Assembly: GCF_964194155.1 (NCBI RefSeq)
Contig: NC_135901.1
Location: 26,970,001-27,034,000, forward strand
Source of the DNA: Cetorhinus maximus
Lineage: Eukaryota
DNA length: 64,000 nucleotides
Reading direction: 5' to 3'
Shown: positions 4,672 through 16,502 of the stretch, piece after piece
Layout of the letters: each line of letters opens with the position of its first letter
How positions within the stretch are numbered: the first letter of the stretch is position 1
Notes under the pieces: model-generated
Told to the model about the DNA's origin: nothing
The model's database searches: none
What the model saw: only the letters and a program-made list of their open reading frames with translations
Translations under genes and position numbers: made by a program

Positions 4672-5430
4672 TCACTTGTGAACTCGCTGATGTCTCTGCA
4701 TGTGGGATAATTGAGTGAATCCCTTCCCACACACTGAGCAGCTGAACGGCCTCTCACCAGAGTGAACTCGCTGGTGGATCTGCAGGTTGGCTGACTGAGT
4801 GAATCCCCTCCCACACACAGAGCAGGTGAAGGGCTTCTCTCCATTGTGAATTCGCTGGTGTGTCAGCAGGGTGGATGAATGACTGAAACCCTTCCCACAC
4901 ACAGTACAGGTGAACGGCCTCTCCCTGGTGTGAACTCGCTGGTGTATCAGCAGGGCGGATGACCTTCTAAACCTCTCCGCACAGTGAGAACAGCTGAATG
5001 GTCTGTCCTCAGTGTGAATGCGCTGGTGGATCATCAGGTCCTGAGAGCTTTTGAAGCCGCTCCCACAGTCAGAGCATTTAAAAGGTCTCTCACTCGTGTG
5101 GGTGACATGGTGCTGCAGCAGGTTGGATAACTGAGTGAATCCCTTCCCACACTCAGGGCAGGTGAATGGCCTCTCACCAGAGTGAACTCGCTGGTGGATC
5201 TGCAGGTTGGATGACTGAGTGAATCCCTTCCCACACACAGAGCAGGTGAACGGCCTCTCCCCGGTGTGAACTCGCTGGTGTCTCAACAGGGAGGATGACC
5301 TTCTAAACCACTTTGCACAGCGAGAGCAGTTGAATGGCCTCTCCCCGGTGTGAATGCGTTGATGAGCTTCCAGCTCAGATGGGAATTTGAATCCTTTCCC
5401 ACAGTCCCCACATCTCCATGGTTTCTCCAT
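4672..5430 (-). CDS. C2H2 zinc-finger protein, 9 fingers, no effector domain (G1)
   Basis: 252-aa ORF of tandem CX2CX12HX3H repeats with HTGERPF-type linkers. The family 3' UTR follows at ~4520-4671. Confidence 0.9.
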
Positions 5431-5722
5431 TTGCTGGTATCTCTCCAGGTTCTACAAACAGATGAAGAATCGTTTGCACAGAACACGTGTACGGTCTCTG
5501 TCCTCGCTGTGAATGGTGCAATGTTTTTTCAGGTTTAAGCTCTTTCCACAGTCAGTGCATTGGAAGCCTCTCATTCGGGTGTGTGGGTCTCGGGCCTTTT
5601 TCAGTCCCCCTGATGTTTAGAACCTTTTGAAGCCGACAGAACACAGAAACATTTCCCCTTCTAGGTTCAAAGGATGTCAGACAGTTTCCTTCTAGATTCA
5701 AAGGCTAATGATATTCAGTTCC

Positions 5723-6570
5723 AAGGATGTCAAATCTCTTTAAGAGAGAGAGACCTGGGCCAACCTTTCCAGAGTCTGCACCCTCCCTGGATTCACTTCC
5801 TTTCCCTTCAGTTCCTGCAAGTCAACAATTTGCCCCCAGAATGAGAAAAGAAACGGAAAGGGGGAAACATTGATTTCCTCACAGATGTTGCCCAGAGGAG
5901 GAAGTTTCAGTCTGAAGCTCATTGTCCAACTTCCGCATTGTGACGTCCACAATGGAACCCTGCCTGAATCAGCCAATAGGAATCATTCTGCTCCGCGGTG
6001 ACGTCCTCGGGTTCCAGTCTGCAGGCCAGGCGCGCGGACACGGGAGCCCCGCCCCTACCCATTGATACCCCTCCCCTTACCCCTCCCCTTCCCCCTCCTC
6101 GAGCCAAGGTTTCCAGGCAACCGGTTGACGGCTCCGGCCAGAGCGAGAAGCTGCTCGGAGAACTCCGGAGAGGGGAAGCTGCGCATGTGCGGGGGAGAGC
6201 CCGCTCCTTCCCTTCATGCTGAGGGAGTGACCAATGGGAAGAGTTGGAGGACCGGAAGGACTCTGGTCCTCCAGCCAATCAGAGCGCGGACTTTGTGCGA
6301 ATGAAGCTTGAGCTTCACACAGACAAAAACTTCCTCCTGTGTCCAACATCTGTGAGTAAAACACTTTCTTTTCTCCCCCTTTCCATTTCTTTTCTCATTC
6401 TGGGGGGAAATTGTTGACTTGCAGGAACTGAAGGGAAAGGAAGTGAATCCAGGGAGGGTGCAGACTCTGGAAAGGTTGGCCCAGGTCTCCCTCTCTCTCT
6501 CTCTCTCTTAAAGACATTGACATCCTTTGCTCCCTCAGCTTGACACATTTATTTGTCTGGCTAAAAGGAT
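5723..6570. promoter_or_regulatory. Bidirectional promoter cassette 1 with inverted arms; core orientation opposite to cassettes 2-4
   Basis: CpG-rich core with CCAAT x3, tgacgtc x2, gcgcatgtgcg, ccggaag/cttccg and a GC box. Flanked by inverted copies of the agagagacctgggccaacctttccagagtctgcacc... arm. Lies between divergent G1 and G2. Confidence 0.85.
6425..6474 (+). other. Predicted 50-nt leader exon inside the promoter arm, present in every arm
   Basis: Upstream donor catct|GTGAGT (6352), pyrimidine tract and ttgcAG acceptor, purine-rich exon, then donor aag|GTTGGC. Its phase matches the downstream acceptor ttcacAG|GATATT at 7624. Splicing is inferred. Confidence 0.6.
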
Positions 6571-7154
6571 CTGTAATAAAGTACATTTATTATTAATTCT
6601 AGTCCTGTAATATTGTACTGTAGCCATATATATTTCCAGTCATAGAGTCAAACGGCACAGAAAGAGTCCATTCGACAAGTTGAGTCCATGCCAACTCTCT
6701 GTAGACTAATCAAGTCTGTCCCATTCCCCCTCTATATCCCCCTTCCCCTGCAAATTTATTTCTTTCCAAGTCCCATCCAATTTCATTTTGAAATCATGAA
6801 TTATCTCCACTTCCATTACCCTCGTAAGCAGCGAGTTCCAGATCATGACCACTTGCTGCCTAATTAAAGTTCTTCCTCAGATTCTCCCTGTCTCTAATCA
6901 GTAAATTTATGAAGACCCTCAACTCTTGGGCAAGAAGCAGTATGCATGGCCTGTTGATCAGCATGCAAGCAAGGGGGTGAAAGGTTATCAGGGGTAGGCG
7001 GGAATGTGGATCTTATTGAATGGCAGTGGAGGCTCGAGTGGCCTTCTCCTCATTCTAATTCGTATGTTTGTCTGATCACGAGAACAGGGAGGTTGTATAT
7101 TAGGTACAGCAGAGTGAGAATGGAGGGACAGTGTGTGGGGTGAGATTTACACCT

Positions 7155-7525
7155 TTTTAAAAAATATTTGTTCATGGGATGTGGGCATCGTTGGCTAGAC
7201 CAGCATTTATTGCCCATCCCTAATTGCCCTTTTTCAGACAACATTTAAGAGTCAACCACATTGCTGTGGGTCTGCAGTCACATGTAGGCCAGACCAGGTA
7301 AGGACAGCATATTTTTTTCAGTAAGGACATCAGTGAACCAGATGGGTTTTTATGACAATCGGCAATGATTTTGTGGTCATCATCAGACTTTTAATTTCAG
7401 ATTTTTATTGGATTCACATTTCACCATCTGCCATGGTGGGATTCGAACCCAGGTCCCGAGAGCATTTCTCTGGGTCGCTGACAGACTAGTCCAGTGACAA
7501 TAATGCTATGCCACTGCCTCCCCAA
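7155..7525 (-). mobile_element. tRNA-headed SINE sharing its 3' end with the LINE at 60735
   Basis: Minus-strand head ggcagtggcatagc...gggttcgaatcccacc carries a B box. The tail atttattgcccatccctaattgc also occurs at the LINE end at 60740. Confidence 0.7.
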
Positions 7526-7969
7526 AATGAGAGAAGAAAGAATCTTCCATAGAAACTACAATTCTCTTTTCTGAATTTCTATCCTGCACTGACAGCGATG
7601 ACTTCTGTAAACATCTTTCACAGGATATTAGAAGGGGAGGATTTATGGACAGAAATCTCACATCAAATGTCACATCAAGATCTGAGAGAGTCATTCCATT
7701 CATGGGAACCGAATGTCATCGGGAGAAATCTTTGTTTGCTCTGTCTGCTTCAGAAGATTTTAAACATCAGTGTGACTGGAAAAGCACCGAGACACACACA
7801 CCCGAGTGAGAGTGTTCCAATGCACTGACTGTGGAAAGAGTTTGCACCAGTTACACAGCCTGAAAACAACATCACCATTCACAGTGGGGAGAGACCATAC
7901 AGGTGTTCTGTGTGTACACGAGGCTTCAACTGACCATTAAAGCTGGAGAGACACAAGGATACGCGCACC

Positions 7970-8812
7970 ATGGAGAAACCGTGGAAATGTGGGGACTGTA
8001 GGAAGGGATTCCCTTCCCCGTCTGCGCTGGAAACTCATCGACGCATTCACACCGGGGAGAGGCCATTCACCTGCTCCATGTGTGGGAAGGGATTCAATGA
8101 TTCATCCCACCTGCAGACACACCTGCGAGTTCACACCAAGGAGAGGCCATTCACCTGCTCTGAGTGTGCGAATGCATTCAGTGATTCATCCGCCCTGCGG
8201 AGGCACCGGAGAGTTCACTCTGGGGAGAGGCCATTTATCTGTTCTGAGTGTGGGAAGGGATTCACTCAGTTATCCAACCTGCAGAAGCACCAGCGAGTTC
8301 ACACCGGGGAGAGGCTGTTCACCTGCTCTGAGTGTGGGAAGGGATTCACTCAGTTATCCCACCTGCTGCGACACCATGTCACTCACACGAATGAGAGACC
8401 GTTTAAATGCTCTGACTGTGGAAGTGGCTTCAAAAGCTCTCCGGAACTGATGGGCCACCAGCGCATTCACACTGAGGAGAGACCTTTCCGCTGCTCTGAG
8501 TGTGGGAAGGGTTTTAGATGGTCAACAACCCTGCTGATACACCAGCGAGTTCACACCGGGGAGAGGCCGTTCACCTGCTCTGTGTGTGGGAAGGGATTCA
8601 GGCATTCATCCACCCTGCTGATACACCAGCGAGTCCACACCGGGGAGCGGCTGTTCACCTGTACCGTGTGTGGGAAGGGATTCAGCCATTCGTCCACCCT
8701 GAGAAAGCACTGGCATGTTCACACCAGGGAGAGGCCATTCACCTGTTCCGTGTGTGGGAAGGGATTCACTCAGTTATCCAGCCTGCGGAGACACCAGCGA
8801 GTTCACAAGTGA
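7970..8812 (+). CDS. C2H2 zinc-finger protein, 10 fingers (G2)
   Basis: 280-aa tandem finger ORF with accATGg Kozak context. The family 3' UTR follows at 8813-8980. Confidence 0.9.
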
Positions 8813-9099
8813 TTCCAGGGGTTGGATTCTGCTGTTATTGCTGCTGTTAATCACATCCAGAACTGAACCATGTTCATTCTGACACTTGGTGAAGTGGGAG
8901 GGTCAGAGGGTTTCTTTCTGCTGGGCTGGCCGGTCTCAAGACTTTGCTTCCAGTGGCTGATGCTCTTTGATCCTGGGAGTGCACATTTCCACTGAAATGA
9001 CCCACAAAAGCTGATGAAGGACATTTATTTTATCCTGAATAGTAAATAGTGTTTTTCCTACCACTACAGGTAGATCCAAAATAAATACATTTGTCTCTA

Positions 9100-9700
9100 T
9101 TCCTTTGAGTCTACAGCACAGGGCCAGGCCAGTCGGCTCAATTGGTCTCTGTCAGTATTTATGCTCCACATGAGCCTCCACCCACCCCTCTTCATCTCCC
9201 CCCATCAGAATATCCTTCTATTCCTTTCTCCCTCATGTATGTATCTAGCTTCCCCTTAAATGTATTCATGCTATTCACCTCAACCACTCGCTATGGTAGC
9301 GAGTTCCACGTTCTCACCACTCACTGGGTAAAGAGGTTTCTCATCAAATCCCTATTGGATTATTGAACCCCTTCATCATCTTAAAGACTCCATCAGGTCA
9401 CCCTTCAGTCTTCTCTTTTCTAGAGAAAAGCAGCCCCAGCCTTTCCTGAGGGTTAAATGCTCTCAGTTCTGGTATTATTCTTGTGAATCTTTGTTGCCCC
9501 ATCTCCAGTGCCTCTATTTCCCTTTTCTAAATGGAGATGACAAATGTTGACAGTGCTCCCAGTGTAGTCTAACCATGGTTCGAAACAAGTTGAACATAAC
9601 CTCCCTGCTTTTCAATTCTATCCCTCTAGAATGGAACCCTATATCTGGGCCCCACATTTTAGGAAAGATGTGAAATTCTTAGAGAGGGTGCAGAGGAGAT
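9100..9700. repeat. CR1 3' fragments forming a duplicated ZNF 3' flank
   Basis: Near-identical blocks at 38450-39100 and 56230-56880, and an inverted partial copy at ~4100-4480. Confidence 0.7.
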
Positions 9701-11507
9701 TTTTTTTGGGTGGGGGGGGTCACCCGATGTTGAAAAAAGGCTGTTGATAGAGGTGCCACCCTCTTCTCGTCTGAGGTCTGAGTAGGTTCACTTTCCAGGA
9801 ATCCCCTCTGCCCGTGAACTCCTCCCACCTGCCTCAGAATTGATGCCGGGTGGGAAACCGTCCTTAAGTGGTCATTAATTGCCTACTTAAGGACTTCAAT
9901 TGGGGCAAGGGTGGGTGGGCCAGCCTCGGTCTTGCCCATCCCACCGTAAAATTGCGGAGCGGTCAGGATAGGTGGGAGGGCATTAGGAAGAGGAATTTTA
10001 TGGGCCTCCCTGCCTACAAACCCGCTGGTGGTGGACTGCAAAATTCTGCACAATGACAGCTTCCAGATAGTTATAAAAACTCAATTGATTCACTCATAAC
10101 CTTCAGGGAAAGGACTTTATCATCCCCTCCCAAACTGCCTACACGTGACCCTTGATCTACCCGTGCTTACCTTTTAATGTTCTCAGGGGAACTAGGAATG
10201 ACATTCTCCAGGGAGCCCCCATTGATATCTCCCTCTGAGCAGCAACCCCAGTTTTTCCATCCTTCCCCTTCACCTAACTTCATACACAATGCACCTGTAG
10301 GGGGCTAATCAAACCATCCTAATTATTCCACGTACCAATACCCCTTGGGCTCAGCATGATCAACAATCATCTCACCTCTCTTCATTTTCCTCCAGAGTGC
10401 CAATTGGTTCACAAACAAAGTGTTACAAATTCAAAGACTACAGCCTCTCTCGTGTAATGAACTGCATGTAAGATGACTGCCTGCAGGGACTCCATCGTGG
10501 CAGAGGTCACATGACTACAGCAAGCCAGATAGGAGATTGACGAGAGTGGGATCGGGGATGAGGCACGTCAGTTAGTTGGAGAGACTGGAGCAGTTGTAGC
10601 TCTTCTCTTTAATTCAAATGTGCATTGGGGCAGATTTGGCCCATTGAGTTCATATTAGCTCTCTGAAGAGCAAACTATTCTGTCCTATTTTCCTGTTCTA
10701 CCCCCATATCCCTGTAGGTTTATTTCCCTCAGGTGCCTCTTCAATTTACTTTTGAAATCATTCCATCATCTCAGCTTCCACCCCCCTCTTAGGAAGTGGG
10801 TTCCAGGTCATTACCACTCACTTGAAATGCTTACGAGGCTCGTAGAGCACAGAATGAGGCCATTCGGCCCATTGTGTACATGCCGGCACTTTGAAAGAGT
10901 TATCCATTTCATCGCATCGCCCTGCAATTTCTTTTTCAGGCAGCGCTTTCCACATCACAAAACTCGCTGTGTTTTTAAACAAATAATTCAGGATATAGTG
11001 TGTTTGAATTTTCACAGAGTATTCGGAATGCTGTCTAAGACAAGGTTATTACACAAAAATAAGACTTAATCTTTATTCATGGTTTTGATGAGTTAAACTG
11101 AGTGTAATATATCCAAGTTTGTGAACAATTAGAAATTAAATGGCATCTCTCATGACCACAGAACCTCCTAAAGCATTTTACAGCCAGTGAAGTACTTTTG
11201 AAGTGTAGTCACTGTTGTAATGTAAGAATCTGTAGATAGGCCTGGGTAGTCAAATTTAGTTTTAAAATTCAATCACCTTCATACCGTATTCACTGTTATA
11301 AGTAACAAGGTCAAGGAAGCCTTTTAAACCTCTAACATGTGGCTACTTTCAGCTTTTTCATCTTCTGCAACTTTTCTGTGTTGACTATATATTGATTTCA
11401 TATTAAAAGCCAATCATGAAACAGATGAATATTCAGTAATGAACCTTGATTCACTTCTCATTAGTTACAGATAACAAGATCAGATGACATAAATCCTAAA
11501 TTTAAAA

Positions 11508-11950
11508 ACCTGCATTTACATAGCGTCTTTCACAACCACAATGCATCCCAAAGTGCTTTGCAGGCAATGAAGTACTTTTGAAGTGCAGTCACTGTTGAAA
11601 TGTTGGAAACGTGACAGCCAATTTATACACAGCAAGATCCCACAAACAGCAACATGATACTGAGCAGATGATCTGTTTTGAGTGATGTTGATTGAGGGAT
11701 AAATATTGGCAGGGCACTGGGGATAACTCCCCTGCAAAATAGGGAACTTCTATGTCCATCTGAAGCAGCAGGCAGGGCCCTTGGGTTCGTATCTCAACCA
11801 GGAGACAACAGCTCCAACAATGCAGCACTCCCTCAGCGCTGGCACGAGGAATGTTGGATGTGATTTCTGTCTTTAGGTCCCAGGACTGGGACTTGAACCC
11901 ACAACCTTCTGACTCAGAGGCGCGAGTGCAATCTGCTGAGTCACGGCTGA
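11508..11950 (-). mobile_element. Full-length DeuSINE/SacSINE1-like tRNA SINE
   Basis: Minus-strand head gccgtgactcagc...ctctgagtcagaaggttgtgggttcaagtcc (A/B boxes), central gagggagtgctgcattgt, and tail aaagacgctatgtaaatgcagg. Confidence 0.85.
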
Positions 11951-12049
11951 CACTGTGGACAATTGTCATGACCACAGCCAGTGTTAATTGCTGCACAAAC
12001 CAAATCCCAGAGGGAAACTTGGCATTGGACTTTTCTGTTCTTTTTTTAA

Positions 12050-12900
12050 AAATCCAGTCTGGAGCAACTGCACTGCTGAGATTTGGCACAAATTTCCGAT
12101 AAAATCCACTCATGCGAGGAAATCTCAAAACTTCCCATTTTGCTGTAGGCACTGGGAATTCCACAACAGCTTTTCCTTTTGCACCTCGTGGGGCCACTTG
12201 ACCGTGTCCAACAGTGTGAGCTAAATACGTGACTTGCACGTTCAAAAGTTCACTTTTAGCCAAATTCGCGACAAAATTGGCTTCCAGTCGATCAAACAGT
12301 TCCTTTAAGTGTTGTAAATGTTCCTTAGCACGTTTGACTGAACACTATTTAGTCATCAAAATAAACAGCACGATTGTCACAGTCACTTTGTTTGTTGGTC
12401 TCTGAAATGTTGCTGGTGCATTTTTGATACCAAAAGGCATTGCTTTGCATTGGTGCAAAACATCCGGTGTCACGAAAGCTGATATCTCTTTTGCCCTCTC
12501 TGATAAGGGTACTTACCAATATCCTAGCAGCAGGTCAATTTTTGTGATAAATGTTGACTGTCCCAATTTCTCGATACAATATTCCAAACATGGAATAGGA
12601 TATAGGTCAGCTTTCGGTACTACATTCACTTTTCTCAATCATCAATACATCGTCTTTGTGGTCCATCCGGTTTTGGCACCATGACAATAGGTGAGCTCCA
12701 ATTATTGTAACTGGGCTCAATAATGTCAATTTGAAGCATGAGTTCAATTTCTTTTCACACTTGAGCTAATTTTACTGGATTTTTTACTGGATTTAATCTC
12801 TATGGGTGTTGCCTTTTGAATCTGAATTCCCCACATCAACATCATGTACAGCTAAATTTGTTTTCCCCAGTTTATTTCCACAAATTGCTTTGTGTGATTG
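12050..12900 (-). pseudogene. Gypsy reverse transcriptase remnant; RNase H and most of the 3' LTR deleted
   Basis: YPIPCLEYCIEKLGQSTFITKIDLL.GYW, MPFG.KNAPATFQR, VTYLAHTVG and FYRKFVPN motifs, interrupted by stops and frameshifts. Confidence 0.85.
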
Positions 12901-13099
12901 CAATAGCTCTTTTAAATCACTCCGACACTTTTCTGGAAGGTAATCCAATATTCCAGCTAAATTCTTAAGCACGCCATCATTGTCCAGTTTAATCAAAGGA
13001 AGATCAATTTTAGAATCCTTAATTCCTACATCTGTTTCTTTACTTATAACTACCAATACCTCCTCCTGTCTATTCTCTCTGTCAAAGTATTTTTTGAGC

Positions 13100-14110
13100 G
13101 TATTTACATGGCTCAGTCGCTGACTCTTCCTTCTATAAGGGGATTACGATGTTTACCTCACTCAGTTTCTTTTTGACCTGGTGAGGTCCACTAAACTTTG
13201 CCTTCAATGATACTGGCAACAATATTAACACTTTTCCCCCAGCCACAAAATTACAAGCTTTTGCCCTCTTATCTGCATTTGCCTCCATCACTTGTTGATA
13301 TATCTTTAAAATGTTTCCGAGCTAGCTCACATGCCTTACTTAATCTCACTCTGAATTTCACCAAATAATCTAGAAGAATAGTTTCAGAACTTAAATTTAC
13401 TAATTTCTCCTGAATTAGTTGGAGTGGTCCCCTCACTTCATGACCATAAATTAACTCGAAAGGACTGAACACTGTTGACTCATTAGGAGCGTCCCTAATA
13501 GCAGACAACAAGAATGGAACCCCTCGATCCCAATCATGTGGAAAGTCTTGACTGTATGCGCTAATCATAGTCTTTAAAGTCTGATGCCACCTTTCTAAGG
13601 CACCTTGTGATTCAGGGTGATAGGCTGACGACGTAAATTGCTTTATTCCTGGGCTGCTCATTCTTTCTTTAAACAGCTGTGACATGAAATTCGAACCCTG
13701 ATCCGATTGCATTTCTGTTGATAATCCATATGTTGTAAAAAAAATTCTTAACTCCTCTACCATCACCTTTGCTCTAATTTTCCTTAAAGATATTGCTTCT
13801 GGAAATCTCCTGGACACATTCATGATTTGTCAGTCAGTACTGATTCCCACTTTTAGTCTTAGGGAGTAGTCCTGCACAATCAATCAGAACCCTGTTAAAG
13901 GGTTCCTCAAATGCTGGAATTGGAATTAAAGGTGCAGGCTTAATTATTGCCTGAGGTTTTCCTATCACTTGACATGTGTGACATGCTTGGCAGAATTTGA
14001 CTACATCTTTATGTAGTCCAGGCCACTAGAAATGTTTTTGTTTCTTAGCTCGAGTTTTCCTAATCCCCAAATGTCCAGCCATTGGAATTTTATGAGCCAC
14101 TCTCACAATC
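13100..14110 (-). pseudogene. Gypsy integrase remnant (HHCC and catalytic core)
   Basis: GHLGIRKT...WPGLHKDVVKFCQACHTCQ, then ORF 13269-13823 with SDQGSNF and ERWHQTLK. Confidence 0.85.
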
Positions 14111-15247
14111 TGGTACCCAGATGGTATCACTATTTGGTGCACTATCGCCCACTTTTCATTTGCCTAAACCTGAGGCAGTCTCCATTTCCTCATTAACACA
14201 TTGTTCGGAATGTAATAACACTCTGGAGTGTATTCTGCTCCTGTTTCAGAATAAGCTGGCATAATTGCTTCAAGTCTGGATCCTGCTGCTGTAACCCCAC
14301 TAACTTCATTGAATTAAACAACTCAGCCTCAACCTCTCTAATCTTTTTTTCCTGCTTAATCCTTTCAAAGATTGATCCAGCCAACTGAAATTCAGCATCC
14401 TCCCCGTGTCTTTTAGATTCTTCCTCCCCCTGTTTAACTTGTGTGTTTGTGACCTCGTCACCACACAATCTGGAAACAATCCAGGATGCTCTTTCTGTAA
14501 AACCTCTGTAGGTTGTGTCTCAGCGGGCTGCTCTACTACAGTAGGCATAGTCAATAACTATGATCCAGCTGTATCGTTCCCTAGAATAAATTGAATCCCT
14601 GCAATGGGCAATTTCTCTACCGCCCCAACAATCACTTCTCCTGTTTTCAAATCACTTTTTAAATTCACCTTATACAATGAAATATCTTTGACTCCTCCAT
14701 GAATCCCCCGGATCAAAACTCTCTCCTGCAATAACCCTTCTGGACAACAGGTGGCACTATCCCATAACATTAAGGACTGGCTAGTCCCCGTGTCTCTTTC
14801 CTTTTCTTCCCTGCACACATGGGTACACCTTTCCTTTGCATATAAAATCTCTGTACCTTGCCTTTCAGAGCTCCCTTGGGTAGGTTGTGAACATGTTGCC
14901 AATTCTCTCGCTACCACTGATTCTTCCTGCTCCACCTGTACAAAATCCACCAGTTTTTCTTGCCCCTGGATCCCAGAGCCCACAGTTCTCTTACTTCAGA
15001 ACTTTTTCTGAGTTCCTATCACTGCAATCGGTTTCCCGGTTAACCTCCACCTATATGATATTGTATGTCCAGTCTGATTGCAATGGGAGCATATCAGTTT
15101 CCTTCCTTTAATTCTATTTTCCACATTTCCATCTTTAATAGACTGGCGTCCTTCAGCTTGATCCTTATCACAAACATTTTTACCATCGCTAGGTTTTCTA
15201 AATCTCCCATGTCCTCGCTGATTTCCATATGACCCTTTTCCTACACT

Positions 15248-15805
15248 CTACTGTTTGTGTGAAATTTCATACGTATCGGCTAAAACAGCAGCTTCTCTGA
15301 TGTTTTTACTTTGTCTTTCAGCTAAATATGTCTTGGTGTTTACTGCAATGCTATTTCTAAATTCTTCCATAAACATAACCTCTCTTACATTTTCAAATGT
15401 CTTGTCTAATTTTAATGCTCTGAACCATTGATCCCAGATCATTTCTTTTTCTCTTGCAAACTCCACAAATGTCTGATGAGGTCTCTTCCTGAAAGTCCTA
15501 AACTTTAACTGGTCAGCTTCAGGGACAAGCTCATAAGCATTGAATACGGCCTTCTTTACTATCTCGTAATCTGCAGACTGTTCCTCTGATAAGCTTGCAT
15601 ACACATTCATTGCTGTGCCTGACAAAACACTCTGTAACATGATAGTCCAAGCATCACTTGGCCAACTCAATTTCATAGCAATCTTTTCCAATGAGGTGAA
15701 ATGTCTTTCAATTCCATCCTCTGTAAATTTAAGCACTAACCGAAGATTTTTAGTTAAATCAAATTCCTCATCGGACATCGGAATCACTATCTCTCCTTTC
15801 TTCAT
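15248..15805 (-). pseudogene. Gmr1-type gag capsid region (SCAN-related C-terminal domain)
   Basis: FEK-like/W...LSG.A..VYASL and DYEIVKKAVFNAYELVPE...KFR motifs typical of Gmr1-like Gag. Degenerate zinc knuckle near 15050-15090. Confidence 0.75.
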
Positions 15806-16502
15806 TTATTCTAAGCGTCACTTTAGACAATTCATACTGTCTGGCTCCTTTCTCTCTCTGTAGCTCTCTATCTCTTTCCCTACCTCTTTCCTCAATTGGT
15901 AACTTCTCTCTCTGAAGTTGAAGTTCAATCTTTCACATTTCTATCTCCCGTAATCTTTTCCTTTTCCTGCTCATCTCTTTCCCATTGAAGCTTTTTTAAA
16001 AATTCTATTTATTTTCATCTGTCTTTTTATTTTTCAAGTTTTGTCATTTCTCTTTCTTTCTAACTCGAATTGTTTTCATTTCTTTTTCTTTTCCTCTTTC
16101 TTCCAATTCAAGCTTTTGCCTTTCTCTATCTCTTTCTATATCAAGCTGCTTCTTTGGCAACTGAAGTCTTACTGCCTCTAGCTGTGACACACTAGTTTCA
16201 GGTGTCCCTTCCTCCAACTTTAAATGCAGGGTAAGTACTTTAACTGCATCAGCCTTACGAAATTCCGCTTTTATCTCTACCTGCACTTCATCTGCTAACT
16301 CTCTCAACTGAGTTTTAGTCAGAGATTTCAAATACTCCATAGTCACATTTTCCACTCCTAGAAAAGTTGTAGCAATTGCCAAAGTCATTTCGCAGTCCAG
16401 CCACTTAAAAAACCCTCAACACAAAACTCCTGAGTTCAGCCTTTTTCTCACACTCGTATCCCTTAGATTCACAAACTCCAACCCAATCAAGGAATTTTAA
16501 TA

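Follow-up and report, generated by a model that had tools for sequence, protein, structure and literature searches.

The window analysed here is a stretch of 64,000 nucleotides of Cetorhinus maximus (contig C24, NC_135901.1, positions 26970001-27034000; genome of 4.0 Gb). It holds nine MEKPW-type C2H2 zinc finger (ZNF) genes, most of them in head-to-head arrangement about a short region that is rich in CpG and flanked by two inverted arms. The features of one such gene, together with the 5' end of its divergent partner, are as follows.

5723..5921, minus strand: arm B, which is the partner gene's 5' end and repeats 6309-6527 in inverted orientation (84% over 220 nt; 100% over 6420-6480)
5922..6300, no strand: CpG-rich region between the two divergent ZNF genes, likely a bidirectional promoter
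6309-6527: arm A, the inverted counterpart of arm B
6301..6351, plus strand: exon 1, 3' portion, whose upstream ATG has a weak context (C at -3, A at +4)
6352..6424, plus strand: start of intron 1, its donor GTGAGT used in contigs; near-identical among paralogues
6425..6474, plus strand: proposed exon 2, not seen joined to exon 1, with no codon-position signal; may be a minor cassette exon
7624..7723, plus strand: first part of the last exon, the 'ILEGEDL...' frame; neutral 5' UTR, the stretch with the inferred old start missing in this copy
7737..7799, plus strand: dead finger 1, with stops TAA at 7761-7763 and TGA at 7773-7775
7821..7885 (end approximate), plus strand: dead finger 2, frameshifted in this copy
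7904..7969, plus strand: dead finger 3, with stop TGA at 7931-7933; its linker Thr codon forms the -3 A of the start context
7970..8812, plus strand: working ORF MEKPW..., 280 amino acids with 10 tandem C2H2 fingers and a stop directly after the last finger

Within the CpG-rich region CCAAT at 6231, a CRE-like TGACGTC and GCGCATGTGCG are presumably promoter motifs. A search of Rfam over 5650-8000 gave four matches, all far below the cut-off.

The protein of 7970-8812 matches PF00096 of Pfam with an E value of 1.7e-62. Its 10 fingers are encoded in one exon and connected by TGEKP-type linkers, as in a tandem C2H2 poly-ZF gene (at least five fingers), and they extend from residue 5 to the end of the ORF. 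SCAN and BTB were absent among the 25 of 57 Pfam families listed for it. Across the genome, KRAB (PF01352) gave one match, on contig C34, and none on C24 (150 of 152 candidates scored). The product of the MEKPW ORF would thus be a finger-only DNA-binding protein, and the original prediction that the family makes such proteins, without KRAB, SCAN or BTB, is supported; no KRAB exon was seen. On the minus strand at 15251-15805, between ZNF genes, a gag-like ORF has a Pfam SCAN match over the cut-off (E 1.9e-08). It sits within an LTR-retrotransposon-like element (about 11500-16500), the kind of element from which SCAN derives, and no SCAN-finger fusion was seen.

Paralogues were sampled over 1.06 Mb of the cluster. 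The 137 last-exon acceptors found there, many with short or broken ORFs, are clustered copies with birth and death; 116 have a good acceptor and a start motif. A 40-mer at the border of the proposed intron 1 and exon 2 has 250 exact occurrences in the genome (control 0), and the sites among the matches listed (100) are all on C24. Both ZNF subfamilies (see below) spread over 0.3-64.7 Mb of this 65-Mb contig, so that nearly a whole chromosome is made up of finger-only genes.

Divergent A/B arm pairs number 20 in the sampled cluster blocks. A core of 110 nt (6352-6486) and its inverted arm-B copy are 98-99% identical to the majority in 105 arms of these blocks. Pairwise divergence of the core is about 3%, irrespective of a leader divergence of 5% or 30%, and in the contigs one relative carries near-fixed differences at 6409 and 6414. 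This suggests either cluster-wide homogenisation or a tightly kept control element. Arm-to-arm conversion within pairs was rejected as the source of the near-identity, none of 52 derived alleles being common within the 20 pairs. In the partner gene (5430-5921, minus strand) a deletion that took out the long intron together with the exon-3 acceptor joins arm B straight to mid-leader sequence, and the nine-finger ORF is still intact.

Upstream exons and their splicing

An ATG at 6301, the donor GTGAGT after 6351, an acceptor before 6425, a GT after 6474 and an acceptor before 7624 are present. Joining 6301-6351, 6425-6474 and the sequence from 7624 onward gives a 101-codon frame that ends 141 nt before the main ATG. 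The signals, the peptides and the frame of the predicted in-frame splicing exist; the joints listed in contigs are different. Contigs from relatives, built from runs only guessed to be RNA, were used to follow the splicing; start sites cannot be read from them. Those leaving the match at 6352 go on with the start of exon 3 at 7624 (8 in run X1 and 3 in run X8, from two studies). No 6351-6425 joint was present among the 10 joints listed, which come from 24 of 156 loose-end rows after 10 rows at a CT repeat beside donor 2 were dropped. The in-frame three-piece join is close to chance, since each arm offers two donors and several ATGs in three frames, enough for several in-frame paths. Minor use of 6425-6474 as an exon is possible; a catshark gene model (P0127) holds the exon-2 peptide with a different join. 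Contig depth was raised over 6425-6474 in four runs, a measure that cannot rank gene parts.

In run X2, three contigs pass from the exon-1 donor into sequence other than exon 3, indicating that some paralogues use another downstream exon. Over 5930-9100 no contig joint was usable, the region being swamped by an intron repeat and the finger arrays. The directly joined form of exons 1 and 3 was not found as genomic DNA. Retrocopies were tried as a record of splicing and given up: pattern searches gave 10 and 1 matches (controls 1 and 4), and none of the nine read was a ZNF retrocopy. In C24 blocks at 21.5, 25.4, 36.3 and 37.2 Mb the first 105-110 nt of the last exon also stand on their own farther upstream, as a unit with a donor-like GTAAGT at its end, and this unit forms an extra exon in shark gene models P0029, P0128 and P0144.

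With the direct 6351-7624 join, ATG 6301 is out of frame with ILEGEDL and opens a 78-codon upstream ORF in this copy. Across copies the context of this ATG is weak, with T or C at -3 and A at +4. Exon 1 is open here only through a private T>A change at 6325, a position that reads T in nearly all the contig depth of three of the four runs and in most of the fourth. The family majority (75 arm-A copies) reads MKIELHTD and then TAA at codon 9, an 8-codon ORF; 28 of 34 linked arm-A genes with the exon-1 ATG stop after these 8 codons. The ATG, an open frame and phase 0 occur together in only 9 of the 75 copies, and an open exon 1 is not the state of the family.

Selection on the leader and the probable linker start codon

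The last exon of this gene opens with a 346-nt leader, 7624-7969. Leaders of 300-400 nt from 111 paralogues were aligned, and the remainder of the 116 were left out. The majority leader is 364 nt long, in frame with MEKPW, and consists of a 42-codon stretch followed by three C2H2 fingers with three stops. As predicted, in other copies the ILEGEDL frame enters FxCSxC..TSV, a stop and two more fingers, and every copy is broken: in none of the 111 is the leader open from the acceptor to the MEKPW ATG. The three common stops are TAA in 80, TGA in 84 and TGA in 97 of the 111 paralogues. Stops common to so many copies mean a single inherited decay, before the family expanded. Gene models in Pristiophorus and Heterodontus likewise terminate at the finger-1 TGA, and one in Carcharodon does so at the finger-3 stop, so the decay is old. 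On the minus strand of C24 near 33.66 Mb (L186 region) an older copy has an ORF of 337 codons, which begins within the leader and passes by a frameshift into the finger frame; it is probably due to chance.

The selection tests rest on tree-based parsimony counts of changes, set against neutral rates that take sequence context into account. The leader evolves without coding constraint, like untranslated sequence. Its dN/dS is 1.04 (0.94-1.16; 118 codons, 111 paralogues), with 1.10 (0.91-1.33) for the 42 pre-finger codons and 1.01 (0.89-1.14) for the dead fingers; the corresponding values are 0.94-1.14 for the intron, read in three frames, and 0.55 (0.42-0.68) for the MEKPW ORF over its first 58 codons. 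Stop gains in the leader number 141 (139.8 expected), and in the ORF they are depleted to 26 (74.7 expected). Indels per 100 nt amount to 40.8 in the leader, 45.8 in the intron and 6.3 in the ORF; those of the leader show no preference for threes (27 of 148). Exon 1 of arm A has a dN/dS of 1.29 (0.98-1.69). The upstream ORFs do not have the constraint of a conserved-peptide uORF, their values being 1.29 and 1.08 in arm A and 1.60 and 0.99 in arm B.

The strength of a start context is measured by the Kozak rule. ACC-ATG-GAG was confirmed at the MEKPW start in six of the nine window copies, and eight of the nine have A at -3 and G at +4. Within the 1.06 Mb sampled, ACCATGG is found in 77 of 116 copies, and 108 of the 111 aligned paralogues retain A at -3. 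The MEKPW ATG was lost 8 times, against 19.7 losses expected. Among the matches listed (100 of 161), the linker codon after finger 3, counted by eye, is ATG in 93, ACG in 7 and GGG in none.

The sister subfamily and a proposed history of the start codon

Sister genes were sought by a protein search of the genome, in which 150 of 17788 candidates were scored as matches, covering most of C24 and small contigs. They have the first 109 nt of the last exon in common with the MEKPW family. All 25 have an ATG where the MEKPW family reads CTA or GTG, and 24 of 25 have a stop upstream of it at one site. They are without 144 nt, corresponding to finger 1 and most of finger 2, and their N-terminus begins with a finger tail, TVHSGEKPY, which points to a deletion in the sister lineage. 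Finger 3 is intact in them and is followed by an N/T/S-G/R-EKPW linker, that is, G or R at the position of the MEKPW family's ATG. This form, taken with the retention of the ATG, supports the proposal that the start is a TGEKP-type linker codon turned ATG.

The first sister sample, largely picked by protein score, gave a dN/dS of 0.61 (0.41-0.88). Blocks were then picked by position, and 53 copies were found in them by DNA: 25 sister genes, 14 older long-leader genes and 14 unclassified copies, which were left out. These 25 sister genes gave 0.85 (0.69-1.07), with two majority stops and 3 of 25 open, and the older long-leader genes 0.91 (0.65-1.26). The pre-finger stretch is a stop-ridden 5' UTR in the sister subfamily too. 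The proposed old start before finger 1, N-M-E-G-E-M-F, is kept in 17 exact copies; in these and in 8 near copies the frame always closes within 43 codons. No form with all three fingers intact was found, and the ancestral form is thus a deduction. A search for fingers 1-2 with X at the stops gave no candidate, which is weak evidence.

The leader 7624-7969 is most probably (a probability of about 0.8) a 5' UTR fossil, dating from a single downstream shift of the start codon in an early shark ancestor of the family. What is observed directly comprises the sequences, the common stops, the neutral evolution, the sister form and the retention of the new ATG; from these we infer the order of events and the route of ribosomes to MEKPW. 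The ancestral last exon would have had about 109 nt of UTR and then a start, AAC-ATG-G, from which translation would run through MEGEMFVC and fingers 1-3 to a TGEKPW-type linker. The acidic pre-finger stretch, upstream of this old start, would already have been UTR. In one lineage, the sister subfamily, an in-frame deletion of 144 nt would have removed finger 1 and most of finger 2 while the old start was kept. In the MEKPW lineage, fingers 1 and 3 would have acquired stops and the linker an ATG, for which its Thr codon could already supply A at -3. The old ATG would then have decayed to GTG or CTA, and tandem duplication may have carried the fossil leader into hundreds of genes. Against this reading, automated gene models from other sharks translate the pre-finger stretch together with the fingers in one frame; these are probably artefacts. 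In arm-B genes, moreover, breaks are slightly rarer in the first codons of the old frame.

An upstream ORF with a function of its own in the arm-B genes appears unlikely. In this explanation the leader is non-coding and acts as a translational brake, the arm-B ORF being kept open for the act of translation and not for its peptide. A wider version, that the ORF of 44-75 codons is translated and kept open across sharks as a brake or as a short peptide in common, with the arm-A partners using the 8-codon ORF, is a little less likely still. The arm-B ATG lies 56 nt before the donor and is in phase with ILEGEDL after direct splicing, giving an ORF that starts MRKLDNELQ. About 128 arm-B sites exist, and 34 genes were sampled. 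Of these, 12 came from 20 new loci picked by an intron motif; the other 8 loci had no usable exon 3 and were dropped. In all 12 newly read genes the frame stays open over a minimum of 44 codons, counted from the ATG position, and 10 of them keep the ATG; stop gains in the 34 genes number 10 against 17.0 expected; the first stop in the old frame comes later in arm-B than in arm-A genes (p 0.03, with copies that are not independent); and a catshark RefSeq model, P0130, has the arm-B join to exon 3. However, tree-aware breaks per substitution are 0.083 in arm B and 0.115 in arm A (p 0.18; p 0.08 for codons 1-25), and the arm-B value equals the intron rate of 0.08. The 12 new genes alone have 6 stops against 8.4 expected, the dN/dS of the ORF over 34 genes is 0.99, and 19 of 30 arms have kept the ATG, which shows 12 changes. 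Retention of the open frame has p values of 0.05-0.18 depending on the test, a hint at best among some twenty tests. A retained-intron ORF in arm B (MSFRL...) was also tried and rejected, with a dN/dS of 0.69 (0.40-1.21), 10 stops against 7.9 expected and an open frame in 14 of 30.

On the fossil reading, ribosomes would arrive at the MEKPW start through leaky scanning or reinitiation, passing a small number of upstream ORFs that are short and weak. Of the 111 exon-3 leaders, 109 carry one or more upstream ATGs, and the gene with the ORF at 7970-8812 has six. Short upstream ORFs are found in nearly all copies, so that a role is conceivable for a shorter transcript or a different start site. 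Gains of upstream ATGs are hardly depleted (150 seen, 160.6 expected), as if their cost were low. This would fit an origin of most protein-making transcripts by a start or splice near MEKPW, with the dead fingers mostly outside the mRNA and the upstream ATGs irrelevant. Such an origin is improbable, as contigs join exon 1 to the 7624 acceptor, acceptors of this type are kept in most copies, and the ATG at leader position 121 was lost 31 times against 19.7 expected.

The original prediction, in which an acidic N-terminal domain of three exons was formerly joined to the fingers and now survives as a functional micropeptide, is very improbable and already largely refuted. The majority leader is open for 51 codons into finger 1, some shark gene models hold the exon peptides, and exon 2 is very well conserved, with an arm-B dN/dS of 0.35 (0.12-0.82) on 13 changes; but this conservation reaches equally into the intron, with no codon pattern and an arm-A value of 1.06, most arm-A exon-1 ORFs close after 8 codons, and neither exon 1 nor the pre-finger stretch, neutral in both subfamilies and upstream of the likely old start, is constrained. 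Nor does an undescribed ZNF-associated domain emerge: the leader peptides have no Pfam match over the cut-off, their profile matches are short automated shark models with unrelated N-termini, and the ESM Atlas search gave no usable hit, a result that bears on neither absence nor novelty.

Other sharks and known zinc finger systems

Every leader homologue with a name comes from a shark (10 of 12 carry names in one search and 16 of 20 in later look-ups); these span Pristiophorus, Heterodontus, Carcharodon, Scyliorhinus, Mustelus, Stegostoma and Chiloscyllium, with no ray or chimaera among those named. At least one of the 35 leader profile matches (P0138) is an unrelated repeat protein, and a region search with P0006 gave mostly generic finger proteins. 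A literature search, covering few subscription journals, found no paper describing the shark MEKPW family. The family would offer a clean case of a start codon that shifted into a C2H2 linker ahead of a large expansion, the older state being preserved in the sister subfamily. It is also a warning about automated shark gene models that translate this UTR. If the finger-only ZNF genes of sharks silence transposons, the leader does not supply the missing effector domain.

Lineage-specific tandem poly-ZF clusters, many of their genes without an annotated N-terminal domain, were described by Emerson and Thomas 2009 (PMC2604467), whose available text gives finger-only proteins, missed exons, pseudogenes and unannotated domains as options for the effector-less genes. 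The shark family resembles those clusters in having its fingers on one large exon and clustered tandem paralogues. It differs in that the choice among the options can be made, the candidate domain being neutral and the start lying in a former linker. In the part of Tadepally et al. 2008 (PMC2443715) available, mammalian C2H2-ZNF genes lose effector domains by degeneration. As in the shark leader, once-coding 5' parts are recognisable there in DNA and not as protein; the shark decay, in contrast, hit three fingers and not KRAB or SCAN, and preceded the expansion.

The cyprinid FiNZ, a conserved 28-residue coding exon in the available text of Wells et al. 2023 (PMC10547256), belongs to a system with hundreds of ZNFs on one chromosome, a lineage lacking KRAB-ZNFs and a short acidic pre-finger stretch, as in sharks; the main text, as available, makes no mention of sharks. 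In contrast to FiNZ, the shark stretch is unconstrained and stop-ridden: dN/dS is 1.10 in the MEKPW family and 0.85 in the sister genes, and none of the 111 aligned MEKPW leaders is open. With tetrapod KRAB-ZNF clusters the shark family has in common a birth-and-death array and small 5' exons with one finger exon, whereas the single KRAB match of the shark genome lies outside C24. KRAB is among the families lost in cartilaginous fishes according to the available text of a whale shark paper (PMC8455134), and PRDM9 alone is reported in whale shark in that of PMC11603059. The shark family thus fits lineage-specific poly-ZF clusters without an effector, combined with decay of 5' coding sequence, and is neither FiNZ-like nor of the KRAB-ZNF type.
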